Assembly: GCA_905178155.1 (NCBI GenBank)
Contig: CAJINV010000025.1
Span: 272,944 to 336,943, forward strand
Source of the DNA: Amoebophrya sp. A120
Lineage: Eukaryota; Protista; Dinoflagellata
DNA: 64,000 bases
Reading direction: 5' to 3'
Part shown: positions 13,350 to 58,500 of the stretch, piece by piece
Layout: the number at the start of each line of letters is the position of its first letter
How positions within the stretch are numbered: the first letter of the stretch is position 1
Translations under genes and position numbers: made by a program
Notes under the pieces: model-generated
Told to the model about the DNA's origin: nothing
Database searches by the model: none
The model's input: only the letters and a program-made list of their open reading frames with translations

Positions 13350-13788
13350 GATCATGGTCTGATGCGTGTTTTTTGCAACACCGGATAATTCTTGTTTTCT
13401 GTGCAGCAGCTGCAACCGTTTCCAAGCCTAAAGAAAGCGTCGGCGCGGCATACGTACCTAAGTAGCCTGGTGAGGTGGAACTACGAATAATTCTCGTTTG
13501 GTCCTTTGTAAGTCGTATTTTCACACGCACTCCCCCCCACCTTCAGCCTCATTGTGCTTTTTAAGAAATTTACCAATATTTTCACGACAGGACGCTCTTT
13601 TACTTTTGCATCTGCCTAGATCAATCTTGCGACTCACTTCCAACCATTTCTGCAGGGCGCAGTAGTTATTTTCAATCTCTGTAGCTAGTAGTTTTCCCGC
13701 AAGATAAGTAACCCTTAGGTTTTCCGCCCACCAGATTCAGACGGCGTTGTTTTCTTGTGTTTCTTCGACCAGGGTCGTGAAGAAGAAG

Positions 13789-19832: not shown

Positions 19833-21694
19833 ATGATGGTGGGACCACTACTTGCGACGCGAGGAGATGAAAAGTCTGCTGCGCCCCCTCTCGGTACTAG
19901 CAGTTCTGCTAGCGGTTTCCATGTTCACGCGGTGAAGAAGATCATTTTTTGCCCGCTTCTTCTCGGGTGCGCGCTCTTCTACTTCGTCAACGGGGCCGAT
20001 CGTCCTCGGCGCCGTGCGTCCTCGGCGCGCGCCGTTCGTCCTCGACTCCGCGCAGCGCAGTCGACACTGGCGCGAAGATCGTCGTCGGCACCGGCCTATG
20101 AAATGCCAATATGTCTGGGTCTGGAAGGGTTGGAATTTCAGATGCTTTCTCTCATCTTCTCTCAACGGCCACACAAAGATCTGCTATATCTATAAATAGA
20201 ATATGCATGAACAGGAAATGCAAAACCTGTCCACTTTTGGCCACCGGGACAGAGGATTTCTCATGCAGAATAGGCATTGCAAAGCCGTCGCAGAAGAAGA
20301 AGAACCTATGTTCTAGTGCCGGGCTCGAGAATGATCCAGAGGACCTTCTGGGCGGCCATACAAAACCTGCGTGACTACATTTTCCAGACCCAGACATATT
20401 TGCATTTGATAAGGCCACTAGAAGTACTAGCTCTGCTGGTGCGGTCGTCCCGACGGCGGGCGGCAGGCGTGCTTCCAAAAGGTGGAGCATGGGAGAAGAT
20501 ACTAGTAGCCGCGTGACACCTTTTTTACCGCCCCGCGACCTCGCGCAGTGGTCAGTGGCTGCAGGGATGATGCACCAAGTCGCGAGGCCGCGGCTTGCCT
20601 GGCTGCAGAGCCTTCAGCAAAACGCGGACCCAGAATGGACCAAGGACGAGAAGCGCCGCGGGGAGCCCTTTCCCTCGAGCCTGGAATTTCTGAAGACCGC
20701 GATCAAGCTCTGGACCAATGCGGAATACGACACTTCGCACGAGCAGCGCAATTCGATTGTGGCGACATATGGTGAGCCCGACACGTGGAACGTCTCAGAC
20801 GCGTTGCGCGCACGGAGAGGCGGGCGGCTCCGATTTCGTTTTGATTTTTGCAGCAATACCCCTCCAGCAGGGCAAGACTTACCTATGTCGTGGGGACTCT
20901 GCTTTCATTCCTCGTTCAGCGTCACAAACTGGCGAGTGACCGGCGTGGAAAGCTTGGAACGCATGTTCGAGGACATGCGTGGCCTTTCCTTTCCGCTCTT
21001 CTGGGATGTATCTCAGGTTACAAACATGGACGGGATGTTTCAAGGCAGCGACTTCAACCAGGATCTCAACACTTGGAAAGTCGATGCTGTTACAACCATG
21101 CGGTCTATGTTCCACGACGCCTCTAACTTCAACGGTGATCTCAGCCGCTGGGACGTGCGTTCTGTTACAGACATGAGCCATATGTTCCGTGGCGCCCAGA
21201 ATTTCAACAGGGATCTCAGCAGATGGAACGTGAGTGCTGTTACAGACATGAGATCGATGTTCGAGGACGCCTCGAACTTCAACGGTGATCTCAGCCGCTG
21301 GGACGTGCGTTCTGTTACAGACATGAGCCATATGTTCCGTGGCGCCCAGAATTTCAACAGGGATCTCAGCAGATGGAACGTGAGTGCTGTCCAAAATATG
21401 AGAAACCTGTTTTTCGAAGCGAGCACGTTTAACCAACCCATTGACGCATGGGGAGAGAAGATTGCGCTTGGGACGGATTTGTCGGGGATGTTCGGCGCGC
21501 ATGTGAACAACCCTGGCACTGCGTTCAACCAAAGCTTGAGAAGCTTTGAGCCGTTGATCAGCGAAGCCTCCTCTCGCACCTACAAAGATATGCTTTTGGG
21601 CGCGACGAGTTTCGATTGGGGTGCAAACTTCAGCAGAAATTTTTTATCACAGCGGGAAGGACGGGAGGTGCTGAGGCTACTAGGGCGAAGATAA
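19833..21694 (+). CDS. DUF285 / BspA-like 25-aa repeat surface protein, copy 1
   Basis: Exons 19833-20096 and 20417-21694 (family A introner 20097-20411). N-terminal hydrophobic segment; about 6 repeats WxVxxVTxMxxMFxxAxxFNxDLSx. Confidence 0.88.
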
Positions 21695-23675: not shown

Positions 23676-23724
23676 TTTGTTTTCTATTTCTTGTGTCTCT
23701 TCGAGCAGGGTCGTGAAGAAGAAG

Positions 23725-26700
23725 ATGGTAGCATCTACCGACGAGCGTTCTTGTTATCAAATGCAAGAAAAGTGTCTGGGTCTGGAAGGATGCAAGTTTG
23801 TCATGCTTATGATCTGGCATGACTCGAGAATCTGTGTTGCATAGGCACGAAAAAGCCCTCTTACCTGTCATGCAAGAACGCAGTTTGCCATGCGGAAGAC
23901 GTACGACACTGCAGCCAAAAGATTTGGCATGCATAGCTGCGTACTGCAGTGCGTCGATCATTCACTTTTAGCATTTTTAACCCAGACCACATATTTGCAA
24001 TCCATACTTGTTCCGCACAAGCGGAACAAACCAAGCCCGGAACTGCGGCGGACCCGAAAAGTCTGCGCCACGAGGACCTGGAGCAAACTACCGATCTTTT
24101 GCAAGACAGTCCCCCGGGGTCCTGCGAGATTTCCGCCTCGCCGCGCCAGGTCGAGGGGGAGATGCACGCCAGCCCCGAGCCGACGTACTCATCTGCGGGG
24201 CACGAGGAGAAAGAAGAGATTCAAGGTGGCACCACCAGCCCGGCGGCCAAGAAGCGCAAGATGCAGGCCGCTACAGCGGAGGAGGAGTGTAGTACTACGA
24301 AGAGTCCGAAGGAACTATCAAATGCAAAAATGTCTGGGTCTGGAAACTTGTGTTGCTGATACTTGCATTGCAAACTTGCTGCTTGTACGGCATAGCAGCA
24401 TGAGAAATTTCCCTCGGCATTCCTTGGGGATTTCATTCGTATTTAGCATGACAAACTACCATATCCAGCAAGACAAAAAAACTGGCCAATGGTATTCATG
24501 CATTACAGATCTTGTTGTCCTTGAAGTCCTGCATCACAAATCCAGGCCCAGACATATTTGCATTTGATAGGAACTGATGGGGACGTATTTTCAGACGAAG
24601 CTGAAGGGGCCGGTATGAATTGCAAAAGTATCGTACTCGTAGTTGTAATTGCAGTCATGCATTACAAACCTTTTTCTTAACGTAAATCCGCATTGCAAAT
24701 TTTATTTCGTATGCTGGGGAAATTTGTAATGCATTTATACGAGGTCGATACAACTTTTGCAATTCATAACCGGATAACTTCTACCATCTGGGTTTGGATC
24801 AAGCAGATTCAAGACTCAACGGGCTGTTTGGCAACGTTCGCATGATCCTGATGATGGGGTCGGCTGACCGGGCGAAGAAGCTGGCGGAAAAGATCGACGT
24901 GAACTTCCCGATTCCGGAAGACCAGTTGGATTCTACCGTCCACGGCATCACCACTTCGAAGAAAGACGCTGAAACGAAGGAACGCTCCGTGGAAGACCTG
25001 TCGCGGGCGAAGGATATCAAAAGGAAAAATCCTCCCTCCCCATATTAAAGCCATGTCCTTCCGAAAATTTGTGATGCAGATTTGTGACCACAAATCCTGT
25101 CTGTCTTGCCAGAAGACAAATCTAAAGAGTCCGCCGCGATATGCAGGCGGTTTGTAATGCTGCAAGGCCTACAGGGCAGACGTCTGCCATGCTGGGTTCC
25201 TACACCAAAAGGCACCCCCTCACGCTTGCGATCTGCGTGCAGTGCTTTCCTGCAAGACAGGCGTGATTTGTGTACACAAATCCCGCATCACAGATTTCTG
25301 TTTTGATATGGGGAGGGGGGATTTTTCATTTTGATAAAGGACCGCGGGAGTTTGTTTGTCACGGGCTACTGCCCTATCAAGTGCAAAAGTGTCTGGGTCT
25401 GGAAGATTGCCAGGTTTGTTATGCATATTTTGCATACTTCATGGTCATGGTGCCTGTAATGCATGACCTAGCATCTTCACAGATTTTTAACTCGCCTTCT
25501 GATGGTGCGTATTCCGCATTAGAAACGCCCACTCCGCGTAGCACAAACTGCACTCCTCTGGCGAGATCAAGCCTGAGGCTTTGTTCGTAAAGGGGGTGAC
25601 TGTGGTTGAGGGGTAAAAAAGGTCATGCAATACAGATTTTTTTTTACCTTCCAAAGACAGCATCACAAGTTGCAACCTTCCAGACCTCCAGACACTTTTG
25701 CATTTGATATGCCCCACCGAGCAGAAGAAGAATTGCGTTTTGATCTTCTCTCACGGGATGGGGAATGCGAGCACCAGCATTTTTATCCCACGAAAAATTG
25801 TTTCACTGTGATGATTTTGCAAGATTTGGATCACAAGTTTTTTACACATGACAAAGAAAACTTGGCATGCGTGCGTCCTAAGGGAAAACACAGCTAAAAA
25901 TCCAATGTCTTGCGTGTGTAGCAAGACAAACACATTTGTGTTCCGCTCTATGCATCACAAGTTTACAGTGAAACAGTTTTTTCTTGCGATAATTTTTTTG
26001 AACGAAATTACCAAGCTTCTGTTCTGGAGCGGCTGCGAGATGAAGAAGCTGGAAGCGCTGCGGATCGGCATATGACGGTGCACAACTCTTCCTCCCCTGC
26101 AGTTGCCCTGCAGTTGTCATGCAAAACCCCAAATCCAGTCGCTTTCCTCCTGTGGCACTGTTTGCGTGACAAATTTCGAAAGGAGCCCAAACAGCACTAC
26201 AGTAAGTACGTAAATTTGTAATGCACAATGTCCACGGTGGTCGCATCGCTGGCGTTTGTATAATTGTTGTTCATGCAATACAAATGAGGGGGAGGGGGGT
26301 TGTGCACTGTCATGCGGCACTTGCGGTGGACTGAATGTGCCCGAGGGCACGGTGTGCATCACGGAGCGTATCACGAGAAAAAAGCGTTACAGTTACACAT
26401 TGTGTTGCAAGCCCAGCATGACAGACAACCTCTGTTATGCCAGAAATGTATGCTCCTTCATCCGAGCTTCATTTCATGCGTGTTTTCCCTTATGCCCTGT
26501 GCATTGCAAGTTTTCCCTCTCATGCAAGGAAGATTTGTGTTGCTGAATTGACAACAGATGTGTAGTCACTGTAACACTTTTTTCATCGGATAGAGCGAGC
26601 GATGGACGGACAAGAGGAATGGGGTTACGAGTTCACTTATGCACTACAAACATACGTTTGGAAGATTCAAACCTGTGATGCAGATTCTGGAACAGACAAA

Positions 26701-28436
26701 AATCTGTATTGCGGAGCCAGCAGAAGATGCGCGAATCTTGTCTCCAGCAGAAGGCATGTCGCATGCAGACCAGGCATCATGGAGAAATAACCTCCGGAGA
26801 GTTTGTCATGCTCTGCGCGTATTCAAGACCTTTTTTCAGATGCAAAAACTGCATGACAATTTGTCGCAGCCCCAGACATGTTTGAAGTGCATATCACTGC
26901 CTTCGGGCAGAAGTTCCGCGATCCGGCTGACGCGGACAACAAGATGGTGGCGGAGCTGACGAAAATCGGGAAGGACATGCCGTTATCCACTGCAAAAGTA
27001 TCGTACTAGTAGAAATCGCATGCCAAGTTCCTCAGCATGAGGAATGACATCTGTAATGCGGATTTGACTTAACCGAAATAAAATTTGTAAATGCATAAAT
27101 GCGATTAGTACCAGTGCGATACTTTTGCAGTTCATAACCCTTTCCCTGCACCGTGGGCAACACCATGACGACCGATGATTACTACCTCGGCCAGGGTCGC
27201 TTAGACGGTGCTTTGCTGCCCCCCGGTCATTTCAACCTCTCGTCTGGAGGCGGACGCGGAGGTACCAGCCCAGGCGATTATCAAATGCAAAAGCATCGTA
27301 CTAGTAGTAACCGCATTTACAAATTTGCTAAGCATGACAGAAGGAATTTCTCATGCTGATTTACCTTGAGAAAGAGATTTGTCATGCATAAGTGCGATTA
27401 CTACGAGTGCGATACTTTTGCACAGGATAGCGATGGTGCAGCAGCGATGAATACTAGCGAGATGAACCTCATCGACGAAAAACAGCAGAAGGAGTGGTTC
27501 GTGAAGCTGCACGAAAAACACGGAATCGTGAATATGGAGATGGAAGCCACGGGCATCTTAGCGTTTTTCCAGCGCTTGAAGATTCCCGCCGCGGTCATCG
27601 CAGTTGCGTTGCTGAATCGGTACAACGGTGACCATATCAAATGCAAAAATGTCTGGGTCTGGAAGATTCTGAGGCTTGTCATGCATGTTTCACATGACCC
27701 AGGATGTCTGTAATGCACGACCTAGCATCACAGATTTTTAGAGGGCTTACTGCTGCCTACTCCGCATGACAAACACCCTCCCCGCGTAGCAAAAACTAGA
27801 CTGCTCTTGCTAGTCATGCAATACAGACGTTTTTAGAGTCCAAAGTTCGCATCACAAGTTCCAGACCCAGACATTTTTGCATTTGACAGACCAGCACGAG
27901 GTTTCCCGGGAGCAGATCAAGGCGTATTCGGAGCGGCACTTGGTATCGCAAGAAAAAAGTGTTACAGTTACACACATAGTCTATGCAAGACCGGCAACAC
28001 AGACAACCTTTCTCATGCAGGAAATGCTTGGGATGAACCTCGATTCCTTCCTGTTTTCCCTTATGATCTTCGCATTACAAGTTTTCTCTGCAGCCACGCA
28101 GAGAAAATTTGTGTTGCTGAAGTTACAACAAATGTGTATCTGTGAGCACTTTTTTCTTGTGATACTTGGCCCTGGCCATGCAGTACCTGCACCAGCGCAC
28201 CTTTGCTATGCAGCAAAAAAACTGTGTAAGTGTAAATTTGTGTTGCAGAACATGCAACAGAGTTACACCTGTCATGCCAGACAGCCACGAAGTCCTCTTT
28301 TACTGTGTGTTTTCCCTTACAAGCCACGCATGACAGGTTTTCTCTGTCATGTAGAAGAGCAAATTTGTAATGCTGTTTCTCAAAGAAAGTTACACTTACA
28401 CACTTTTTTTCCTGGATATTTGCGGTGTTGAAATGA
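23725..28436 (+). CDS. Uridine phosphorylase, copy 2, 14 introners
   Basis: Near-identical exons to copy 1. Introners at 23755-24006, 24316-24569, 24614-24768, 25015-25336, 25375-25709, 25784-25991, 26071-26314, 26369-26592, 26638-26893, 26984-27136, 27279-27429, 27635-27888, 27944-28164, 28207-28418. Confidence 0.92.
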
Positions 28437-33890: not shown

Positions 33891-35144
33891 GACGCCTCGA
33901 ACTTCAACGGTGATCTCAGCCGCTGGGACGTGCGTTCTGTTACAGACATGAGCCATATGTTCCGTGGCGCCCAGAATTTCAACAGGGATCTCAGCAGATG
34001 GAACGTGAGTGCTGTTACAGACATGAGATCGATGTTCGAGGACGCCTCGAACTTCAACGGTGATCTCAGCCGCTGGGACGTGCGTTCTGTTACAGACATG
34101 AGCCATATGTTCCGTGGCGCCCAGAATTTCAACAGGGATCTCAGCAGATGGAACGTGAGTGCTGTTACAACCATGAACGGTATGTTCGCGCACGCCTCGA
34201 CCTTCAACGGGGACCTGAGCGAATGGAAAGTGAGTGCTGTTAGAGACATGGGCTGTATGTTCGATGGCGCCTCGACCTTCAACGGTGATCTCAGCAGATG
34301 GGACGTCAGTGCTGTTAGACACATGTACTCTATGTTCCAGGGCGCTTCGACCTTCAACGGGGACCTGAGCCGATGGGACGTGAGTGCTGTTACAAGCATG
34401 ACGGCGATGTTCTCCGGCGCCTCGACCTTCAACGGGGACCTGAGGAAATGGACCGTGAGTGCTGTTACACACATGCAATTTATGTTCCAGGGCGCTTCGA
34501 CCTTCAACGGGGACCTGAGCCGATGGGACGTGAGTGCTGTTACACACATGCAATTTATGTTCCAGGGCGCTTCGACCTTCAACGGTGATCTCAGCAGATG
34601 GGACGTCAGTGCTGTTAGACACATGTACTCTATGTTCCAGGGCGCCTCGACCTTCAACGGTGATCTCAGCAGATGGAACGTGAGTGCTGTTACAGACATG
34701 TCTTTTATGTTCCGTGGCGCCTCGACCTTCAACGGGGACCTGAGCGGATGGGACGTGAGTGCTGTTACAAGCATGAGCAGTATGTTCGAAGGCGCGCGGA
34801 ATTTCAACAGGGACCTGAGCGGATGGGACGTGAGTGCTGTCCAAGATATGAGAAACCTGTTTTTCGAAGCGAGCACATTTAACCAACCCATTGACGCATG
34901 GGGAGAGAAGATTGCGCTTGGGACGGATTTGTCGGGGATGTTCGGCGCGCATGTGAACAACCCTGGCACTGCGTTCAACCAAAGCTTGAGAAGCTTTGAG
35001 CCGTTGATCAGCGAAGCCTCCACTCGCACCTACAAAGATATGCTCTTGGGCGCGACGAGTTTCGATTGGGGTGCAAACTTCAGCGAAAATTTTTTATCAC
35101 AGCGGGAAGGGCAGGAGGTGTTGAGGCTACTAGGGCGAAGATAA
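33891..35144 (+). CDS. DUF285 / BspA-like repeat protein, copy 2 (5' end in gap)
   Basis: At least 13 25-aa repeats; C-terminus and 3' flank nearly identical to copy 1. Confidence 0.85.
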   Translation, partial: DASNFNGDLSRWDVRSVTDMSHMFRGAQNFNRDLSRWNVSAVTDMRSMFEDASNFNGDLSRWDVRSVTDMSHMFRGAQNFNRDLSRWNVSAVTTMNGMFAHASTFNGDLSEWKVSAVRDMGCMFDGASTFNGDLSRWDVSAVRHMYSMFQGASTFNGDLSRWDVSAVTSMTAMFSGASTFNGDLRKWTVSAVTHMQFMFQGASTFNGDLSRWDVSAVTHMQFMFQGASTFNGDLSRWDVSAVRHMYSMFQGASTFNGDLSRWNVSAVTDMSFMFRGASTFNGDLSGWDVSAVTSMSSMFEGARNFNRDLSGWDVSAVQDMRNLFFEASTFNQPIDAWGEKIALGTDLSGMFGAHVNNPGTAFNQSLRSFEPLISEASTRTYKDMLLGATSFDWGANFSENFLSQREGQEVLRLLGRR

Positions 35145-36719: not shown

Positions 36720-39609
36720 ATGATGGTGGGACAACTACTTGCGACGCGAGGAGATGAAAAGTCTGCTGCGCCCCCTCTCGGTTGTACTGGCAGCTCTGCT
36801 TGTTGTACTGTGCGTGGCGGTTTCCATGTTCATCCGGTGTTGAAGAAGATCACTCTTGGCCCGCTTCTTCTCGGGTGCGCGCTCTTCTACTTCGTCAACG
36901 GGGCCGCGGCGGCGCAGTCGACATCGACGCAATCGTCCTCCGGTTTCCATGTTCATCCGGTGTTCAAGAAGATCACTCTTGTATCCTGAGTAAAAAGGTA
37001 CCCACACCAGAGTCAGGATGGAGATTTTGCAACACAAACCTAGGAGTTTTGTGAGTCACGCATGACAAGTTGCACTCTGCAGTGTAGTGCAGGTTAGCAA
37101 GTGCAGCCGCGTCACAGATTCATCTGTTCATCCTGTTCACAGCATCACAAATTCCAAAACACGATTGGAAATGGCTCTCATGCGGATGCGCATTACAAGT
37201 CTTCCTGTCTTTGCAAATCTGCATTACAACTCTGGTGTGGGTACGTTTTTACTCAGGACATCTTGGCCCGCTTCTTCTCGGGTGCGCGCTCTTCTACTTC
37301 GTCAACGGGGCCGATCGTCCTCGGCGCCGTTCGTCCTCGGCGCGCGCCGTTATCAATTGTAAAAATGTCTGGGTCTGGAAGATTCTAAACTTGTGATGCT
37401 GTCTCTGGATTCTAAAAAAATTTGCATTGCATGACCGGCAACAGAACTCCATTTTGTGCTACCCGGAGAGGGCATTTCTCATGCGGTAGAGGCATCACAA
37501 AGGCCTTTGAAAATCTGTCATGCTAGAGCATGCATCACAGACATCATGAGTCTTCCAAAATATGCATGACAAACCTGGCAAGCTTCCAGACCCAGACATT
37601 TTTACATTTGATAGCCGTTCGTCCTCGACTACGCGCAGCGCAGTCGACACTAGCGCGTCGATCGTCCTCGGCACCGGCCTATGAAATGCCAATATGTCTG
37701 GGTCTGGAAGGGTTGGAATTTGAGATGCTTTCTCTCATCTGCTCTCAACGGCCACTACACAAAGATCTGCTATAAATAGAATATGCATGAACAGCAAATG
37801 CAAAACCTGTCCACTTTTGGCCACCGGGACAGAGGATTTCTCATGCAGAATAGGCATTGCAAAGCCGTCGCAGAAGAAGAAGAAGAACCTCTGTTGTAGT
37901 GCCGGGCCCGAGAATGATCCAGAGGACCTGCTTCTGGGCGGCCATACAAAACCTGCATGACTACATTTTCCAGACCCAGGCATATTTTTGGATTTGATAA
38001 GGCCACTCGAAGTACTAGCTCTGCTGGCGTGGTCGTCCCGACGGCGGGCGGCGGGCGTGCTTCCAAAAGGTGGAGCATCGGAAGAAATACTACTAGCCGC
38101 GTGGCACCTTTTTTACCGCCCCGCGACCTCGCGCAGTGGTCAGTGGTTGCACAGGATATCCACCAAGTCGCGAAGCCGAGGCTTGCATGGCTGCAGAAAA
38201 TTCAGCAAAACGCGGACCCAGAATGGACCATGGACGAGAAGCGCCGCGGGGAGCCCTTTCCCCCGAGCCTGGAATTTCTGAAGACCGCGATCAAGCTCTG
38301 GACCAATGCGGAATACGACACTTCGCACGAGCAGCGCAAAGCGATTGTGGCGAAATATGGCGAGCCAGACACGTGGAACGTCGCAGACGCGTTGGGCGCA
38401 CGGGACGAAAGCGGGCGGCTCCGATTTCGTTTTGATTTTTGCAGCAATACCCCTCCAGCAGGGCAAGACTTACCTATGTCGTGGGGACTCTGCTTTCATT
38501 CCTCGTTCAGCGTCACAAACTGGCGAGTGACCGGCGTGGAAAGCTTGGAAAGCATGTTCGAAGGCATGCGCGGCCTTTCCTTTCCGCTCTTCTGGGATGT
38601 ATCTCGGGTTACAAACATGTACGCGATGTTTCGAAGCAGCGACTTTAGCCAGGATCTCAACAGCTGGGACGTGAGTGCTGTTACAACCATGTCTTCTATG
38701 TTCAGTCACGCCTGGAGCTTCAACGGTGATCTCAGCAGATGGGACGTGAGTGCTGTTACAGACATGTCTTATATGTTCAATGGTGCCTCGACCTTCAACG
38801 GGGACCTGAGCGGATGGGACGTAAGGGCTGTTACAAACATGGACTCTATGTTCTACGGCGCCTCGAATTTCAACGGCGGGGACCTGCGCGGATGGAACGT
38901 GAGTTCTGTTAGAAACATGAGCGCTATGTTCCGTGACGCCTCGAACTTCAGCGGGGATCTCAGCAGATGGGTCGTGAGTGCTGTTATGTACATGGAGTCT
39001 ATGTTCCTTCGCGCCTCGACCTTCAACGGGGACCTGAGCGGATGGGACGTGAGTGCTGTTACAGACATGAATTGTATGTTCCGTGACGCCTCGAGCTTCA
39101 ATGGGGATCTCAGCAGATGGGTCGTGACTGCTGTCACAACCATGCACTCGATGTTCCGTGGCGCCTCGACCTTCAGCGGGGACCTGAGCGGATGGGACGT
39201 GAGTGCTGTTAGACACATGAGTAACATGTTCCACAACGCCTCCAGCTTCAACGGGGACCTGAGCGGATGGGAAGTGGGTGCTGTCCAAGATATGAGCGAG
39301 ATGTTTTTCGAAGCGACCACGTTTAACCAACCCATTGGCGCATGGGGAGAAAAGATTTGGCGTGGGATGGCAAGGACTCGCGTGCGCCAAGTTCTATTGG
39401 TTGGGATGTTCGGCGCGTATGTAGGAGGCCGTGGAACTGCGTTCAACCAGAGCCTGAGAGGCTTCGAACCGTTGATGCTTTCGGGCGCGACGAGATTTGA
39501 GTTTGACCGCATGCTTTCGGGCGCGACGAGCTTCAACTGGGATGCAAACTTCAGCCAAGAGCTTTTAGCACAGCGGAAGGTAGTGAAGAAGCTACTCGGG
39601 CACCGATAA
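36720..39609 (+). CDS. DUF285 / BspA-like repeat protein, copy 3
   Basis: Introners 36982-37260 (H), 37351-37613 (A), 37680-37999 (A); about 10 repeats; diverged C-terminus. Confidence 0.88.
36982..37260. mobile_element. Introner, family H (TATCCTGAGTAAAAAxGTACCCACACCAGAG)
   Basis: About 30-bp TIRs, DR TCTTG/TCTTG. Confidence 0.88.
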
Positions 39610-46500: not shown

Positions 46501-49500
46501 GATGCCCAGCACCGCCTCCGCGTTACTATCTCGCAGTACAATCGTGGCGCGCAGACGAGCTGAAATTTTGCGCGCCTCCCACCTGGCTGCGGTCACCCAC
46601 AGCCCGCAACCGTATGATCATTTCGGGTCCTCTACTTCGGAAGCTGCTGCGCAAGAGGACGAAGATCATCATGTTTTTCCACTTTTTGAAGACGTTGATG
46701 ACCAGGACACAGCGGCTAGGGGACCTACTACTACGTCGAGTAGAAGCAACGCAATAAACTACCACACCGGAACTGCGGAAGATGATCACTCATCGCTGCA
46801 AGAAGATCTCCACGTGTTCGCCTCCTCCACCCTGACATCCAACGCGGTCCTGACGAATGGCTACGCCCTCGATGCGGGGCTGTTGCTTTTCTATTCAAAA
46901 AAAAATGACTGTACGTCTGGTAGGTCAACTTCATTTTTGGCCGAAAAGCATGAAAGACAAATCTTTCGGGTGTAGTACATAGCAAAAAAAAGAAAAACAA
47001 CTTTTCGTGGGCTGATAGCGCGATGTGAAGACACGAGCGACGTTTTCGGCCACACGATACTAGCCGCCATGATGCATGTTCTGCACGACAAGTGTTGTCA
47101 CTGCCGTACTTCGTCCTCTGCAACTACACACAGTTACACTAACAATTTTTTTTGGTTGCATATTTGATCGAAGTACCCGATTGTGGACAGGGAGGAGCTG
47201 CAGTTTGAGACGTTGGGGCGCGGCTGGGACAAGTTTATCTGCTTTGGCGCACTTTACGCAAAAATCAGGATTCCAAGGCTGTCTTCGGCGAAGCAGGACC
47301 ACGGGACTTCTGCGGACGAAGGCAAGAATAGAAGTTACCAGCAGGAGGAGCAGCAGTGGCCCTGTGATGAAGTACAACAACAACAATCGACTTTATTGTC
47401 AATAAGCACGACTTGCGAATACGTGCACCTGATCACGACCCGGCTGCAGCCTGAGTATGACGAACATTCCCAGGCGGCGCGACACGATCAAATCTTGGAG
47501 CTCGTCGAGTTTGTGCTCAGGCTCGCAAAAAAGAGAACAGGAGGAGAGCAGGAAAGAGGTAGTTCTTCTACTTCTTTTTTCCAGTGGCCGCTGATTCTGA
47601 CCGGGGATTTTAACTGTCGGTCCGAGCTGGAGTGGGAGCGGGACTTGCTGCCTTTGTTGCAAAAGTACTTGGCAAGTCCTCGTCCGCACGAAGTATGTAC
47701 TATGTGGGAAACGATACACGATCTGTCATCTTCCGGCAGCACAACAAATCAGCTGGAGCGAGATGCGCGGGCAAAGGGGTACAATCGAAAAAAGAAAAAC
47801 GCGGCAGGTGGCGTTGCTGGTGTTGGGGTCGTTGGCGAGGCCGGTGGTACAACTAGTACCGGGAGCTGCTGTACCAGAGAGGCAGAAGACATCGGCACTT
47901 CTGTGGACAACCCAATGCAGTGGAACAAAGTTTTGTTTTTCACCCCGCGGCAAAGTTCTGGTGTAATTCTTGAGAAAGACAGCCGCGAGGACGGCTTTTT
48001 TCAGGAAGAGGACACCGGTACCGGAGTAGAGCTGCAAGATCAAGCGGAGGAAGCAATAAAAAAGAAAACTTCCGCCCAGGAGGACGAGGTGGGCGAGGAG
48101 CCTTCTACATATCAAGTGTAAAAATGTCTGGGTCTGGAAAAGTGTAGACTTGTCATGCAGATTTTCCATGACCCATGAGGTCTGGAATGCGGAACTTAGC
48201 ATGACAGACTCTGCGAGGTCTCTGCCATGCCTATCCTGCATGAGAAACTCCCCTCCAACTTTTGGTCAAAAGTGTACAGCTTTTGGCACTCATGCAACAC
48301 AGATTTTCGCATGCTTCAGATTTACCATGACAAGTTGGAATCTTCCAGACCCAGACATTTTTGCAATTCATACTACATCAACTCCTCTTCGGTGTCAACA
48401 AGAACTCGAGTATCAAATGCAAATATCCCTGGATGTCTGGAAGATTCGGAGACTTGTCATGCAGATTTTCCATGATCCATGTCGTCTGGAATGCAGGACC
48501 TAGCATGACAGATTCTGTGAGATCCCTATCATGCCTATCCTGCATGAGAAACCTCCTCTCAACTTGATCAAAAGTGGACAACTTTTGGCATTCATGCAAC
48601 ACAGATTACAAGTCATGCATCCAGAATTAGCATTACAAGTTGCAACATCCTTCCAGACCCAGACACTTTTGCAATGCATATCGAGGGTCTCCTTGCCAAG
48701 ATCAAAGCGGAAGAACCCAAGCTCGCCCCCATCTCGCTCCTGCACAAATCTGCATCGTGGAAGCCGCAGGACCTTGCGGCTGTTGCTATCAAATGCAAAT
48801 ATGATGATTGGGTCTGGAAAGTTGGAGCTTATCATGCACATTTCGCATGACCCATAATGTCTGTGATGCATGCCCTAGCATCACAGATTTTTTGAGAGCT
48901 CCTTCTTGCTGCTAATTAGAATTACGCATGAGAAATGCCCGCCCCCCGTGCCAAAGAGTGACTGCTTCTCTGGCTGCTCATCATGCAACACAGATATTTT
49001 TAGAATCCGCAGACAGCATCACAAGTTCCGCTCTTCCAGAGGACCCACACATATTTGCATTTGATAGTTGCGCAGGCGGAGCATTTCGTCGAGAAGACGC
49101 AGATATGCATTGCAAAAGTATCGTACTCGTATTGGTATTGCAATCATGCATGCAGTAATCTGAGTTGTCCTACGCTGAGTTGCTTTTTTGACTTTTTTTT
49201 GCGCAGTTCCTGGCGCGATCTGAATTGTCACAATATAGCTCATACGTTCGACTTTCGTCCTTGCTACGTTTTCTTCGTGAATCCTTACTGTTTTGCCGCT
49301 TTGGGTTTCACGTATGACGGGGGGAACGTCATATCTTGCAACTTTAGCCGTCGCCTTTCCGGGGTTGTCATCACGTGATAATCATGTGATTATCACGTGA
49401 TGAAAACAACTCAAAATGGCTTATGGATCGCAAAAATCATGTGATTATCACGTGACTACTCACGTGATTATCATGTGATCCGCGCAGGCTTGATTGTTCG

Positions 49501-52500
49501 GGGCCCAAAGCATGGCGCAACGGGTAAAAAGCTGCACGCGCTGCGTTCTACCGCAGCCAGTTTGCGGGGGTCCTGCCAAGGAATGCTCTCCCGGGCCCTG
49601 GGCATGGACCATGCCCATGGTTGCGCGTGTGGCGGGGCAGCGTTCCGAGCAAATTGCCGCAAGTCTCCCGGTCTAACTATTTCGGCACGCCTCGCGCCTG
49701 GTATAACCCATAGCGCTTGCGGGCGTCCTTCCCCCCCCCCCCCCCCCGGGCCCTCTTTCGCATGCTGCCGCGCATGCGAAATCAGGGCGCGCGCGCTGCC
49801 TATCTTCGCTTTTGCTTTAAAGCAATGCTATTGCTATGAGGAAAACGTCGGCACGCACGCACACTGCCCGTCGCGCCATAGGCCTAGCGCCCGCGCAGGC
49901 TTCCCGCGCTACCGGCCTTTTAGGGCGAGCGCTTCTATCGAAGGCGCCCGTAAGCGTGGTGGGGGTGGGCACTTCCATTTCCGTGGACTATTGTCTTCTT
50001 GCTTCAGAGCTTGTCGCTGGCTTGTGCCGGGAAATATATTTCCGATTGACCGAGATAGGCTGCTTTGTCTTTCTGCGCTGAATTGCTTCGCTTTCTGACA
50101 ATTCAGCTGCTGAGCTATTGCCTTCGTTTTTGGTCAAATACGACACAAGGTCCGCTATTTTCGCTTTTGAAGAAGTTGGCTGCTGAAATGCCTTGCTCGC
50201 TGTTTTCGGGTTTTCGTAATACGATACGATGTAAGGTTTTCTGGATTCTTAATACGTATTTGGGTACAATTCATCCTATACGACAACTCATCTACCTGCA
50301 TGCATTACAAATCTTTTTCTCAAGGTAAATCTGCATTACAAATTTTATTTCTCATGCTGAGGAATGCATTTTTTTATACGAGCGCGATACTTTTGCAGGT
50401 CATAACAGATGCTCCTGGACCGAGGAAAACAGTTTCTGAAGGAAAATCTCCCGGAACAGATCACCGCGCACGCATCGGTCGCCCCGTATTTGATGGACGT
50501 GGAGCAGCTGAAGAACGGTAACCCGGTCCTCTGGAGCGACGCTTACGGCGTCGTGAAGTCGTCGCCCGTTCTTGGTAGCACAGCGTACAGTCCTTCCGGC
50601 GTCGAGGTCAAAAACGGCGGTCGTGGCGCTCCGCGAGGCAAGGCAACTGGAGGTGGTGGCTCTACTCCTGCTTCCTTCTCTCAACTATCCTGTGCAAAAG
50701 TATCGTACTCGTACTAATTGCAGTCATGCATTACAATTTTTTTTCTTAAGGTGAATCCGCATGACAAATTTTATTTCTCATGCTGAGGGAATTTGTAATG
50801 CATGCACCCAGATGAATTGTCGTATAAGATGAAATGTAACAAAATACGTATCTGTTATCCAGCGAAGCTTGCAGCGTATCGTATTACGCAGCAGAGAAAA
50901 GCGAAAGCGAACACCAGCCGAGCCAAATTCGACAAAAGCAAAAAAGCAACCCTTGCAACATATTTTCCCAAAAATGAATTGCAAGAAGCATCAAGCGTTG
51001 TTGTAAAAATCGATGCAATTCAGCGTGAAAAGACAAAGCAGCTCAGCTTGCCGCTTCTGTGATATAGCTGCGCTGCGAAATAGAATAAGACGAGCAAGCG
51101 GAAAAAAAATGCAGCAAAGTAGCGACAGGAAAGCGAGCGCGATCTACTTCTATTGCCTCAGCTGCAGCTTCTGTGACAAAATTGACGCACTGAGAAACGC
51201 GATCAAAAAAAAAAGTCGCTCTTTAGATTGTGAAAATGTAGGGAATGAGAACGAGAAAGCCAAAGCTAACATAGGGAGAACAAAAATACACAGAACGAGT
51301 TCCACATTAGCAAATAAAGCCTACAAGACTTAACTTGCACCAACACAAAACGCAGGGACATATCAAATTAGCAACGCGAGTTTTGTATGAGAACAAAACG
51401 AGCGAAGGAGAACTTGCAGGCGAAGTGCAGCGTCGGGGCAAGTTGGTGAAAGCGTTAGCCGTCAATCAACATGCGGGGTGCGCTGTACTTCGTACGGAAA
51501 TGGAAACAGTTTGCAGAAACAGAAGACAGCAGAATAGTGTAAAAATTGCATGTAAAATTCAAGAAGAAGCGCATAGTGTACAAGTGGAGCGCAGCAACAG
51601 AGCGCGTTGGTCGAAGCGACAGCCTCAAATCAACTCGCGTGGTGCGCTGCGCTCCTAGTTGTAATAGTTATAGCTGATAACAGTTCAAGTCCGACACAAG
51701 AAGAGATACGAGAAAAGACGAGAAAAACGACTGATAAAAGTAGCACAACGCATGTTGTTTCTCACGAGAAATTACACATGCGAAAAAAAACAAAACGAGT
51801 AAAAGGAACGCAACGCATCTTCTAGCACAAGAAATAACAACCGCCCAAGAAGCTAAGCAAAAACGGAAAGCCGACGCCGCGGCGCTTTTCGCGTGCCCCC
51901 TCTTCAGGGCTCGGGATTCTTGAACGCAGACAGAGACCGGCGCCCCTCCGAGGCGGAGGACGTCGAGGCCATGCGGTGCAGTTCCTGAAGCTCCGGCGGG
52001 GCGCGCGGCTCGATCGAAGTCGTGCGCCACGTTGCCGGCATGCGCAGAAACTGGCCGCCTTGAAAATTTCGCGTGAGCGCCAAAGGAATGAAAACGACGC
52101 AAGGGCACCGCTGAGCACGCCACCACGCCATTGGTGCAGCCTCATAAATTCGCCAAACGATGCTGACACCAGTAACGCCCTCAATGCGGATCCGAATTCC
52201 GCGCGTCGCCCCCTCGACACGGGTGACCGAACCCCGGATGTTCGTGGGAACTTGTTTCGGGCCGGCAGTTTCCAGCTCGGCGACGTCGACGTAGGCTTTC
52301 GTTTGCCCTTATGCACTGCAAAATCGCACTGGCGCAACGTAATTACGCAAGCAGCCAAATAAAAACAAAGAAAAACTAGAGGCCAGCATGCTTCTGGGCG
52401 CATAAAGAGAAAAAAAGACACTGAGAAAAATGCGCAACCACATGCGCGCCAGCACGAGTGTTGCAGAGCTTAAGAGCGGAAGCGACCCCGAGCCAAAAAC

Positions 52501-55500
52501 GCGATCCATTGCGGGGTCGACGGCGACGACCGCGGAAAGATCGTCGCCCGCAGCTGGAGGCGGTGGCCCAGCAATCGACGCCGTTTCTTGTTGGACTCGT
52601 GGCGGGACGTGATTCGGCGCGGCAGGCGGCGCGGTCTCGGTGGGAGGCGCAGGCGGCGCGGCGACTTGCGTGAGGCCCGTGGGGCACCGCTTGAGGTCCT
52701 TCCAAGGAACATCGCGCAGAGTCGTTTCGCGTTTCTTGCCGGAGAGGACTCCGTCGCTGCGGACATCCACCCCGAGCGCCTTCACCTGCGTAACGACGAA
52801 AGGCCCCAAGAATTTTGTTGCCAAGCCGGGGCTTTTCTGTCTGTTTCTGCACAAAACACGTTCCCCAATTTTCAGCTTTTTAATGTCCTTCAGCCTGCCC
52901 CCGTCCTCCCGATTTTCAAAGAAGCGGCTGCGATTGCGTAGCGCCTGTCTGGCCAGGGAGCCGCGCAACGTTGCGGCCGCAAAATCAGCAGCGCCATCAC
53001 TTTCGCCACCCGCGGCCCCGGCGCCGTGTTTCCGTTCCTCGGAATTCTGCGGCGGGGGTCCAGCCAGTGGGGTGGCTGAGGCTGCGCTTGCGCTTTCTGC
53101 CGCGGCGCCCTTGTCTGCAACGATATGCGGAGGCGCACGCTGCACGGGATGCAGAGTGGCTTCGGTGATGTCCCGTAAGGGGCGGAGAAACGTGTTCAAA
53201 TGCCTCGCAGCGGGAATCCGACGGCCCCGCGTCGCCCGTCGGTTCAGTGCCGCAACAGACGCAGGCAAATGACGAGGCCAATCCTTTTCGCCCCCCCTTT
53301 TACGCAGTTGCTGCTTCAACTGTCCATTGTAGGTTATCATCGAAAAATCCTCCCTCCCCATATTGCAAAAGGAATTTGCGTTGCTGATGCGTGGCCGCGA
53401 GTTGTAGTCCGTTGCAGAACACGCGCGAACACGAACCCAGCAACACGAATGGTCTTCATAAATAGGGGGGAGCGTCTTTTTCAGTTTCGTAGAACTTTCC
53501 GCGGCACCATTGGACTGCGGATGCGCGCGAGGGCTTTCGCGGATATCCGTGCGAAAGGCTGCGCCCGCCGGGGGGTCGTTGGTGAAGGTCGCGCACTTAT
53601 GGTCGCGCGTCAAGCAGGTGCACTGGCTCCAGTTCTTTATCTGCTGCAGCTCTGTGCCCTTGTCAATGTTCAAATGATCCGGCACGCCGTGTTCCTCGAT
53701 CATGTCCAGATACGCTTGCTTGACCTCTTCCGCCTCGAAGCTCGTCAGCAGTTTGGAACAAACAGCGCCAGTCGTGAGGCAGCACATGTTCAAACAACCG
53801 ACGAAGCGCGTGCCGACATTTTTGCCGCGGTGCGCCGAGTTTTCGCAGGGGGTGCAAACTATGCAGTCGAGCCCTGCCCAGGCAAAAGGCCGAAGGGACT
53901 CACTGGCGGGGTCCTTGAGCGCCGCCAAAGTACTGCTTGCGTAAGAATCCTGCTGCTGCGGCGCATGTTCTTCGTTGGCCGCGCAAGCCTCGCACGCTTG
54001 CACCGCAGCCCGCGCGCTTTCTTTCAAGCCGCACCACGTGAAGCCAAGCTGCTGGATGGCCACCCCAGTTGCCTCAATTCCCCCATGCGACCGCAAATGC
54101 CCAAGGGCCGCAATGCGCTGTTTTTCCGCGTCGTCGTCGGCGCCGATGACGGTAAGCCAATCCGGATACACCGTCAGCGCCTCGGTGGTTTTGCGTCCGT
54201 AGCCCTGGAACTCTGCGCGGGCCTGCAGCTTGCCCGTGCCCGGGGCCAAGCGGAAAAAGTTTTTCTTTGTTTTCCACCACTTCCGCTGCCGCGCGGTAAG
54301 TCCCAACGCTTTGGAAGCCGCCCCAATGTCAGCAGCTCGCAGCAAGAATTCAATCGCGCCATCGGGCAAAGAAAAATTTTTGCCGGCGTTGGACTTTCGC
54401 CCGCGCTTTCGTGGGGGGGGCGCGCACTCGCTCGCATCCGAAGCAGCCTCCCCATCGCTTTCGCTCGAGTCGCTCAAGCTAACAACGCTCGAAACCGACG
54501 GCGCCGGCGCATCTGCTTCCGCTGCACGTTTGCGAGAGGCCAAGCCAACCGCCACAGGTTCGCCCTCTTGCGTTTCCAAAACCGTTTCGGCCTTCGTTTC
54601 GGGGGGCGGGGCAAAGGAAGTCCCCGTCGCTTCCGCTTTCGGCTGAGCGCCGCGCCTGACAAAGGCGTTGTAGTGGCGGCCATCGTACTCGAGTCGGATC
54701 GCCTTCGCGCCGCTTCCGATTTTCTGCGCCTGCTCTTGAGAACCCGGGGCGGGTTCGATCTGAATCGACAACACTATGCAAAAGAAAAAGCAAACCAGCC
54801 CACTACACATCAGAGACAAGAGAGGCACGGGCCGCAAATTTTCGCAAAACGCGCGCCGCATCCCGCGCAAAAACGACAGCGCGCGGCGTGCCGCTCGGCT
54901 CTTTTAGGTGCGGGCGGGCTCATTTTTTCGGGTAGGGTCCATGACTTTCGCCACAGCCTCCAAAAATGCGTGGCCCAGCCATACCGTTGCCGCGGGGTGC
55001 AGAAGTTTTCCCAACCAGGCCAGCCACTTGCTCTGCTCTGCTAAAACCGCGGGGCCCGCCGGCTCGTCCACTCCGTACTCCCCCACCCAAAACGGACCAA
55101 GCTCTTCGCGCTTGTCCGCCATGAAACCCTCCACCAACTGCTTCACCTTCGGCATGCTGATGCCTGTGGCCGCCGCAATCGAAAGAGGGCAACAATTGCC
55201 GTTCCCCTCGATCTTTTGCAAAACATCGGTCGAAGCCGCACCACAATCGCTGAAAAAACGAAGCCCCCCCCCGATATCGTTTCGGGCTTCTGTCATGCTG
55301 ATCTCCTGAATTTCCCGGGATTTTCGTGGAAAATCCTGGGAAACCAGCGAAAGCGCAACCAAGTCCGCGCATTAGCTGAAACAACGACGGGGGGGGCGCC
55401 TGTGTTCACGGCCTTAAGCTTCCCCCGGGGCGGCCGCAGCAGGGGCCTCCGCCGGTTTCTCGCCGCGGATCCACTCGACCCGGCACAGCCACTTGCCCCG

Positions 55501-58500
55501 TCCCGGCTTGGGGTTGCGGCTGCCGGGGAGCCTCCCGACTTGGCTCGGCTTGTTGGCGTGCCTGTCCCCCCCTAAAAGGGGGACCATCACCGTGCGGAAA
55601 TCTTTTTCCGCTGTCGCGCCGCCGGGGACCTGAAACCACGCCTGCCAGCAGGCCGCCGAAGTGCGGGTCACCAACTGGCAGCGGTGGTCTTCCTTCGCCC
55701 TTTCCACCACCCCCGGCGCAGCGTTGTCCAGGTCGACCAAAAAATATCAAACACGCAAAGCCTCCGCAAAACAGCGCCGCGCTACGGGCGCGCGCGCGAG
55801 GTATTGCCCGACGGCTGGGCAGGAAATTGAGCGACCGCCCAATCCCCCCTGCCCTTCTGTCATGGTGCTTGGCCGCGGCCAATCAAGCAAGCGGCGCCCC
55901 TTTCCCCTTGTACGGGCGGCAAGCTAGAAGGAAAACGCGAACCCGCAACGCCCCCCATGCTACTAAAAGCGCGCGCACGAGGCGGGGGGCGGCGCTGCCC
56001 TATCTAGCCAAGGAACGGCCCCGGCGCTGCGCCACACTGGGCGCGCGCCTTGCAACTCGGGTCGCCTCGCTCGGCCGCCGGCCGGCCGAAGAAATTTTCT
56101 CACCAACCGGCGAAAACCTGCGCCGCGACCTTGGCCGGGGCCTAGGGTTTAGAATCTCCACCGGGCGCCCGCGGCTTTGCAGAAAAACGCCGCAACTCCA
56201 TCGCGCGCAATGCTTGCGCGCCGTTGCGAAGGCTTTGCGCGTGCACATGCGTAAAATCCAGTCGGAGCCCATCGGGCGAAAGAAATAATGAAAATCCTTC
56301 CCGAGCGCGTTGGGCCGCCACGCCTTCGGGTCCGCTCGCTGCTCCATGCTGGCGACGCCTGAAAAACAGAAAAGATGAGTGTTGCTATTTGACATGTGAA
56401 AAAGGAAACCTCACTACGCGGAAAACGACTGAAGCGCCCTGTTTCCCCTCCCTTACTATAAGAAAGCGGAAGCGAAAATCTATCGCAACACCCAAGCGAA
56501 AAAGAATACCTCCCCCACCACGCAGCGGGTCCTTGGCCTGTGTCAGGATCAACTTCCGGAGGGCCCCGACCGGCAACAACTTCGTGACCCGTGACCTATC
56601 CCCGAAAAAAATGCTGTCCACACAAAGCTGGCGACCTCACTGCATACAAGATCGAAAACGCGAACCGGCAAAACAAAAAAAAAATCCGTTGCCCCTCGGC
56701 GGGGCAAATGCAAAAAGCCACCACGAGGCCCCGCCGCCTTCCATGCGCCTGGGGAGTCCATTTTTTTGGGGGATAGGTCATGTCTGCGACAAGTGCCGCC
56801 GCATCCAGATCGTTCGTCACCAGCCCTTCCCCCGTGTACCGGTAACCCGGAAACGCCGACGGCATCGGGGGGGGCGGGGGGGGCAGGTTGTGCAGGCCCG
56901 GGCCACCGGCCGTGCGGCCCGCGGGCGGATCGATGTTGCGCCCGGACGCTTTGCCGCTCGCCTTCGAATTGTCCCCGCAATCGGAGTCGCTCGCCACAGA
57001 AGCCGGGCCCGCGTCGAGCTGCCCGTTGGTGGGGGCCTGGGTTCCGTCCGGAGCCGGGGCAGCGGGGGCCGGGTCCTGCAGCCAAGAAACGCCCAAGACA
57101 CTGCCCGGGCCACTGTGCGGAAATGCCGCCATTAGGCCGGCATCCCGCGTCTTTGTGGCGACATTCGCGGCAAAATCTTTCTGCTCGGGGCTGATGGGCT
57201 GCGCCCCTTCCATCGCCATCGCCAACATCCCGCCAAGCATGCTGCGCCATAATGGGAAAAAGTGCGCCCAAGCAAATCACGGGCGGGGGCCCTTGTATCA
57301 TAAAAAACAGCCCAAAGCGCCAGGCGCTGCCTGGCCTGGGCGCCGCAAAAGGCGGAGCCCTTAGCGGGCGGAAACCCTGCAAAGCCTGGGGATTTGTCAT
57401 GCCTAAAAAGCTGCCCGCGCCCTGCAATTGCAGGGGCTTGGTTTTTTTTCGTATTTTTTCCTTGGCGCTGAGGCCCTTCCCGAGCGTCTCCAAGCGCTTG
57501 AAATTCGCCCACAGCTTCGCCACCTTCATACGAGTGAGCCGCAGGCGGTCGCGCTGCTTGTCCGAGTAAGCGCCCGGGTCACTCATGTCGACCCACCCCG
57601 CGGGAGTCAGGCGAGGGGGAAAATTGCCCGAGTCCCCGAAGCAGAAGTCGGAATCCTGCAAGTCCAGCAAGCCAGCGACCGCCAAGGCCTTGGCCCGGTC
57701 GTAATCGCCGGCCACCGAAACGATTTCCATGGCCATGGTGTTTGTTGTTTTCTTTCGATTTGCAAGGCGAAACCGAAAAAATGCGAGAAGAAGAAAAACG
57801 CGCAACAACGACAAAGATAAAGAAGCCAGAAGCGTCGCAAGCTAGTGCGTAGCTGGTGTTTTTTTGCTTAGTAGTCGAGAGGTTTTTTTTTGTGGTTAGT
57901 GTGCTCGTTTTTCGTCCGAGGTAGACAAGTTGTTTTTTTTTGGGTAGCGTGTTCTTTTTTTCGTCTGAACAAGACAAACTGAAGTTGGGCACTGTAAGGG
58001 TAATGAAGATGAAACAAGAAAAAAGTAATATAAGCATGAGCCAACGCAAAGTCATCATATGCCTATCACGTGACTGCTCACATGATAATCGTATGATTTT
58101 GCACCCCCATAAGCCATTTTGAGTTGTTTCGCTCACATGATAATCATGTGATTATCATGTGAGGCCCGACGCTCGACAGCGAAAGTATTTTTCCAATTAT
58201 ATGACGCAACGCCCGTCATACGTACGAAAGGAAGCGTAAAAACGTGAACGAAACACAACGAAAACAACGAAAGAACGAAAACCGATCGTATACACAATAC
58301 GACGACAACTCAGATTGCATCCCGTAAGGCCATGAAAAAAAGTGAAAAAGACAACTCAGCACGAAGCAATTCAGATTACTGCATGCATTTATACGATTAC
58401 GATACTTATGCAATGCATATCAACCCGCCCCGGAAGCGACGAGGACAAATGATGGCAAGAACGTCACTCTCACTATCAACTGCAAATATGTCTGGGTTTG

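Follow-up and report, generated by a model that had tools for sequence, protein, structure and literature searches.

Ginger1 and Ginger2/Tdd transposons are built around a Gypsy-like integrase with an H2C2 finger and a DDE triad, end in TG...CA, show a target preference, make 4-bp target site duplications, and include members with an OTU accessory domain, introns and non-autonomous derivatives; in the sections of PMC2836005 that characterise them, Ginger elements have neither a reverse transcriptase (RT) nor long terminal repeats (LTRs), and Ginger1 has a GPY/F motif. The target preferences given in those sections are short, CCGG for Ginger1 and RTATAY for Ginger2. Here we describe an element that shares most of these features, with a GPF version of the motif, a candidate OTU-like domain and a duplication that can be read as 4, 5 or 6 bp. 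It lies in a 64,000-nucleotide stretch of the genome of Amoebophrya sp. A120 (contig CAJINV010000025.1, positions 272,944 to 336,943; hereafter the window, whose own numbering is used throughout), where it is inserted into an introner, a mobile intron with the inverted-repeat plus direct-repeat architecture described for Amoebophrya introners in part of PMC7789003. The element belongs to an integrase-encoding DNA transposon family with one long form and short non-autonomous forms. On balance, we think it probable that this is a site- and orientation-specific Ginger-like transposon that uses one introner family, family B, as a spliced safe harbour and likely recognises a motif of that family.

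The long form measures 7,581 bp and begins and ends in TGCA, and the window sequence has TGCA in tandem at both ends (50799 and 50803; 58380 and 58384), as a preliminary description of this locus had stated. That description also read a 4-bp target site duplication. With ATGCAT at every insertion site, duplication lengths of 4, 5 and 6 bp are all compatible with the sequence; we prefer 4 bp only because it yields TG...CA ends. Ends of this kind are the ones that such integrases use. TGCA is duplicated in all three copies found, the long one and two short relatives, and all three share the terminal starts TGCAG and TGCAC. The terminal inverted repeat (TIR) of the element is imperfect, with matches at 12 of 17 terminal positions (13 of 17 was also scored) and no longer terminal arm. 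The reported lack of RT and LTRs held up: we found no RT, protease or Walker A motif in any of its six frames, no RT profile match among its open reading frames (ORFs) scanned with Pfam, and no LTR, the longest internal direct repeat being 62 bp at 73% identity. Short degenerate direct repeats (51417-51485 and 51581-51649, 69 bp; 57871-57961, 41-49 bp) occupy its untranslated regions. In two DNA contig sets, possibly the window's own source, depth within the long element was 92-120 against 43.5 for a single-copy exon contig (X1) and 40-55 against 26.5 (X2), and the contigs of its interior differ from the window by 0-8 letters each. Read roughly, the depth suggests two to three near-identical long copies.

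Removing the element and one TGCA restores a 149-bp introner that is 77-87% identical to 14 other copies in the window, which bears out the earlier view that a family-B introner has been split. The host introner has kept both its TIR arms (50686-50718 and 58387-58419; 33 nt, 79% complementary) and its TCAAC direct repeat, and the exons flanking the composite intron join in frame, again as first described. Splicing of the insertion together with its host had been proposed along with a check for a join across 50685/58425, and in RNA-type contigs the 7.7-kb composite intron is removed exactly. One X7 contig (depth 7.2) joins 50680 to 58420 and skips 7,739 bases, and in record 28 of X8 positions 50406-50680 run directly into 58420-58473 with no differences. 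Further joints in X7, at 58472>58771, 58912>59186 and 59275>59431, correspond to removal of the next introns, and this serial intron skipping marks spliced transcripts. For the upstream invaded intron, the only hint of splicing is that record 28 begins at 50406, the predicted exon boundary. Splicing still works because the terminal arms and the direct repeat of the introner were left untouched by the insertion. Five RNA-type runs were aligned; the raw-read runs X4-X6 were uninformative, with 55, 4 and 1 partial reads that probably stem from another strain, and the X7 and X8 contigs leave the element interior uncovered and carry no information on its expression.

The previous intron of the same gene is a second invaded family-B introner, and its 1,150-bp insert is one of the short relatives, which the preliminary description did not contain. 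This insert resembles the ends of the long element over 333 bp at 70% identity and 244 bp at 73%. Neither the long element nor any other part of the window clearly resembles its GC-rich interior (49480-50060), and the autonomous form from which it derives would thus belong to a different subfamily, not seen here. The other short copy, 1,145 bp long and 97.5% identical to the first, lies in a family-B introner of a different gene on a public metagenome contig (L001), and was the one match from one metagenome-contig scan with a 24-base end pattern. End patterns of the element had no match in the viral contig and genome contig collections, and loose-end tables from the DNA contig alignment were filled by introner copies and held no further element flanks.

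These copies bear on the possibility that family-B introners have their autonomous master in the 7.7-kb unit, or that introner and element move as one composite piece. Such an account would fit introner ends with a transposase gene between them, and the mobiliser of such introners is given as unknown in the relevant part of PMC7789003. However, the host introners of the two short copies are only 70% identical and their inserts 97.5%, which indicates separate insertions into pre-existing introners and excludes the copying of a pre-formed composite; across the hosts compared, identity is 70-78%. The internal TGCA duplication, the use of two different positions within the introner and the different end chemistry (TA...TA with a 5-bp repeat against TG...CA with a 4-bp one) also speak against this account, already contradicted by the host divergence, and we give it hardly any credence.

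All three insertions fall inside family-B introners, a family that makes up 4.5% of window bases and holds 24 of 69 ATGCAT sites. The suggestion that the element targets introners gains support, and the target favoured here is longer than the proposed ATGCAT. Read in the orientation of the element, all three sites are A-TGCA-T(T/G)ACAAAT (A-TGCA-TKACAAAT), an oriented 13-bp motif in which 6 of 7 downstream bases are identical across the sites. With the inserts emptied out, the window has 15 copies of the motif, of which 14 fall in family B; introners of this family hold two copies, inverted relative to each other. The short forms used the left copy and the long form the right one, and the orientation of the long copy is flipped to match. 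Subfamilies that share no more than 70-73% identity at their ends have kept the target. Random triples of oriented sites gave p=0.0055 against the ATGCAT pool and p=0.0002 against the TGCA pool, and a test with one site as reference gave p=0.025 and 0.0007, respectively. An oriented target longer than ATGCAT is favoured by these observations.

Much of the pattern could also arise if the element were a conventional cut-and-paste transposon of Ginger-like type that prefers no more than a short palindrome (TGCA or ATGCAT); it would reach introners through site abundance and selection and share a flank through chance and local hopping. The short preferences of Ginger1 and Ginger2 given above are in keeping with it, and so are the 54 of 68 ATGCAT sites that already lie within repeated, introner-like DNA; because so many of these sites are in repeats anyway, ATGCAT alone explains little. 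Several points weigh against a specific, spliced target. There are three sites, two of them neighbours 500 bp apart, which makes local hopping possible, and when the distant L001 site alone is counted, p rises to 0.16 for the ATGCAT pool and to 0.027 for the TGCA pool. The motif was defined post hoc, after the sites were seen, with this one window as background. Selection removes exonic insertions and thereby inflates intron counts, although it does not explain orientation. The RNA-type contigs, for their part, come from one sample labelled RNA by guess, and the transcribed allele may be one that has no insert. What a short preference leaves unexplained is the common orientation together with the downstream identity (p 0.006-0.025), and the flip at the inverted motif copy. 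We therefore hold that account rather unlikely and prefer recognition of the family-B motif.

The integrase identity of the coding segment is real. Its H2C2 finger matches Pfam at E=4.9e-5, just under the cut-off, and the ESM Atlas gives as look-alikes (0.91-0.95) H2C2/rve integrases from diatoms, giant viruses and Polinton-like viruses. The D-D-E spacings are 67 and 54, and an FLGPF sequence (52798-52812) supplies the GPF motif. A homologue search over 1.84 billion representatives returned two matches, one of them true (P0002, a singleton at 29% identity), with which the GPF motif aligns; the other, P0001, was dropped as a spurious repeat protein. Other integrase homologue searches, including viral contigs, found none. 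The true homologue has 478 aa and a GPY motif and comes from a 7,809-bp ENA contig, which could hold a related full element. The long D(54)E spacing had been singled out as unusual, but a long spacing is common to the sole homologue found (D(46)E), and we regard it as a lineage trait. A single-sequence fold of the integrase (pLDDT 36) was too poor to use. Directly after the catalytic Glu, in frame, lies the relic of an introner of another window family (53331-53491); it is stop-free, so that the reading frame survives whether it is spliced or not.

The preliminary description listed OTU, H2C2, DDE and GPF modules. The last three were confirmed by Pfam, the ESM Atlas (0.95) and motifs, and the OTU-like region stands on motifs, with no HMM or PDB match for its two halves scanned separately. 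It has putative Cys and His boxes of the OTU pattern (54646-55248). The intron predicted within this region has a length that is a multiple of three and holds a stop. The C-terminal 134-aa segment gave no OTU or Ulp1 match in Pfam. Introners have invaded the long element itself at three places (53331-53491, 56592-56782 and 52306-52472), a feature that the first account did not include.

Also missing from that account was a further domain, which its sequence marks as a probable archaeo-eukaryotic primase of the RepB'-like type. The segment scored E=2.1e-4 and 21.6 bits against Pfam RepB_primase (cut-off 24.3; a fragment, and one of ten proteins scanned), and its ESM Atlas matches are RepB-like clusters (0.94, 185 shared features), with AEP-TOTE and BT4734-like among the other families listed. 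All four RepB'-type catalytic motifs (DxD, Gln, Asp, Arg..Asn) are present by eye when set against the descriptions in part of PMC5862659. A predicted first exon may join the core across an introner-like intron of about 514 bp. Two other explanations for the interrupted frame were considered. A DNA contig (record 6) crosses the T-run with no gap, so the break before the core is not an assembly slip, and an intron fits better than a frameshift or stop read-through; a reassigned genetic code, considered because several segments share one frame, was set aside because the stop-bearing stretches look like introners. The single-sequence model (pLDDT 56) had no informative structural match, and homologue searches found none, apart from one weak unrelated match each in plasmids and phages.

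The primase assignment has its own difficulties: the Pfam score is below the cut-off; no more than 5 of the 10 best Atlas family matches share a family or clan, which the Atlas itself flags as a warning, so that the RepB label may be wrong; neither a PriCT/PriCT-1 nor a helix-bundle domain was detected by Pfam in the neighbouring ORFs; no helicase or polymerase was found in the element; and the frame would depend on the predicted intron. As described in parts of PMC5862659 and PMC4434180, RepB' of RSF1010 likewise has acidic motifs I and III, a Gln in motif II, an Arg with an Asn six residues later in motif IV, and a hairpin cis element; RepB' primes at hairpin ssi sites (PMC4434180, in part). 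Here, in contrast, the domain lies in a eukaryotic transposon, with a predicted intron inside it, and the accessory domain and helicase partner of the RSF1010 system were not detected.

Primases and OTU proteases are common in Polinton-like viruses and transpoviron-like elements. The combination of integrase, primase and OTU could thus mark a reduced or defective replicon of that kind, helper-dependent after loss of capsid, helicase and polymerase, and the rve proteins of Nucleocytoviricota and Preplasmiviricota among the Atlas look-alikes of the integrase (0.92-0.94) point the same way. Yet the element has no long TIRs, is intron-rich, has a single-strand gene layout in 7.6 kb and has given rise to MITE-like derivatives; none of its ORFs scanned matched PolB, helicase, packaging ATPase or capsid families in Pfam, PHROGs or NCBIfam, the Walker A search was negative, and it had no match among viral contigs. 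We regard an origin of this sort as very improbable.

Near one end, about 230-330 bp from it, the long and short forms have kept a double palindrome within DNA that is about 65% identical. Its hairpin folding has z scores of -4.8 to -8.6, none of 200 shuffles folded as well, and in 2 of 14 stem pairs both partners differ between the subfamilies. That copies without coding capacity have kept it speaks for a function in transposition. It looks like the hairpin sites at which RepB' of RSF1010 initiates (PMC4434180), although palindromes fit binding by a dimeric protein equally well as hairpins. Motifs of the TGARTTG type recur unequally near both ends of long and short forms, a Tn7-like arrangement that could give control of orientation.

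We propose that the integrase would bind the repeated TGARTTG sites, arranged unequally at the two ends, and transfer the CA-3' ends to TGCA at positions staggered by 4 bp, while a putative protein domain would read the 3' flank; the insertion would then be spliced out together with its host introner. More speculatively, the primase-like domain might prime DNA synthesis at the subterminal hairpins, by which an intermediate, either excised or strand-transferred, would be copied; the OTU-like domain might act as an accessory deubiquitinase or processing protease. The role of the primase is the least certain step. That the element represents a new eukaryotic class, a self-priming integrase transposon with its own RepB'-type primase and hairpin, whose sequence- and orientation-specific integrase seeks out a signature motif of an introner family and which is an obligate hyperparasite of that family while itself being invaded by the same introners, we consider unlikely.

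Measured against the portion of PMC2836005 that defines Ginger, the element differs in having TGCA in place of TGTNR ends, 12 of 17 imperfectly matching bp in place of TIRs of about 40-270 bp, OTU-like motifs upstream of the integrase where the OTU or Ulp1 domain of Ginger1 is C-terminal, and TGCA (3 of 3 copies) in place of the Ginger1 target CCGG/CCGT. The D(54)E spacing, the probable primase and the oriented 13-bp target, as opposed to a 4-6 bp palindrome, set it further apart. Since it departs in termini, TIR length, OTU position and target, we call it "Ginger-like" and do not keep the Ginger label of the preliminary description in its strict sense.

Dada, reported in part of PMC3706591 as the first target-specific eukaryotic DNA transposon superfamily, also shows oriented, target-specific insertion into multicopy sequence, subterminal repeats without real TIRs and deletion derivatives at the same site, and it is known in the alveolate Perkinsus. 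Its targets, however, are snRNA and tRNA genes, its DDE family is a different one, its duplications are 6 bp and its fingers CCCC/CCHC, whereas the element here targets a mobile intron, is spliced out and has an H2C2 finger. Tx1L in Tx1D and Tourist in Tourist likewise use another mobile element as a safe haven; the elements there are a non-LTR retrotransposon and MITEs, and the part of PMC6719617 that treats them does not present the hosts as spliced introns. In A120 itself, family 38 of PMC12130899 (in the part used here) is a TIR element with Gypsy/Copia homology, but it constitutes the intron itself and is about 810 bp long, with TIRs of 49-53 bp, TA termini and a duplication of 5 bp; identity of our element with family 38 was rejected on size, termini and duplication. 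Among the A120 rows compared in supplementary table 8 of that paper (1-40 of 58), fam103 (27 introns, internal elements of 1,143-1,191 bp, TIR 16) resembles the short form in size and may be the same element. Our searches of the open-licence literature turned up neither a Ginger-like element with a primase nor a transposon that targets introners.

Table 1. Features of the invaded host gene and of the transposon family, in window coordinates
Feature	Position	Strand	Basis or details
Second invaded family-B introner	49104..50400	+	Previous intron of same host gene
Non-autonomous relative, 1,150 bp	49151..50300	+	TGCA...TGCA; flanking TGCA 49147-49150 and 50301-50304
Host exon between the two invaded introns	50406..50685	+	RNA-type contigs cover 50441-50680 and 50406-50680, 0 differences
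Host introner direct repeat TCAAC, 5 bp	50681..50685; second copy 58420-58424	+	From sequence; RNA joint ambiguous over 5 letters
Host family-B introner, left part	50686..50802	+	Ends in first TGCA copy 50799-50802
Putative autonomous transposon	50803..58383	coding strand minus	7,581 bp, TGCA...TGCA; ends match 12/17
Other end kept in non-autonomous copies	50803..51045	-	About 240 bp, 73% identical
Degenerate family-B introner in element	52306..52472		Family-B alignment; precedes C-terminal 134-aa segment 51907-52308
Gypsy-like integrase	52672..54330	-	H2C2 53983-54099; D 53863-53874; D 53656-53667; E 53497-53511; GPF 52798-52812
Degenerate introner of another window family	53331..53491		Matches window copies 11086, 11959, 15113, 63095 and others
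OTU-like protease (candidate)	54646..55248	-	Cys 55189-55206; WLG 54961-54981; His 54664-54687; predicted 171-bp intron about 54773-54944
Probable RepB'-like archaeo-eukaryotic primase core	55417..55740	-	DxD 55726-55740; Gln 55636-55650; Asp 55558-55572; Arg..Asn(+6) 55513-55533
Predicted first primase exon	56254..56358	-	YFFRP motif 56273-56296; by eye and frame test; no Pfam match alone
Introner-like insert in element	56592..56782	-	About 31-bp inverted arms
N-terminal coding region	56599..57736	-	ORF map; no family match; probably broken by a predicted intron about 57402-57250
Conserved double hairpin/palindrome	58045..58175		Around invariant 23-mer 58107-58129; candidate priming or protein-binding site
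Promoter-side end kept in non-autonomous copies	58050..58383	-	About 330 bp, 70% identical; repeated TGARTTG motifs
Host family-B introner, right part	58384..58419	+	Begins with duplicated TGCA 58384-58387
Next host exon, in-frame join	58425..58472	+	RNA-type contigs and frame check

Elsewhere in the window, a 107-bp tandem array of about 27 copies (1686-4575; 93% matches) starts just inside the end of an introner at about 1598. This introner and the relic within the integrase gene belong to one family, and the array may be another large cargo that is spliced out with its introner. Three paralogous genes contain 75-bp coding repeats (21053-21390, 33893-34840 and 38652-39284) that encode 25-residue units, which we take to resemble DUF285/BspA-type surface repeats. 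A 4.3-kb segmental duplication (13751-18046 and 23687-27958) is 97.8% identical, introners included.

The insertion has moved the arms of an introner from 149 bp to 7.7 kb apart, and the splice junction is still exact. The ends of the intron, rather than its length or interior, thus appear to define it, and the composite intron is in effect a natural experiment on the recognition of these non-canonical introns. Target-specific DNA transposons are rare in eukaryotes, and one that targets introners, if this is what the element is, would have found a safe harbour in which splicing of the host parasite hides the insertion. A retroviral-type integrase that reads a 13-bp oriented target would be of interest for programmable integration, and if a Ginger-like element does carry a primase, this would be relevant to the link that has been proposed between Ginger transposons and Polinton-type replicons.

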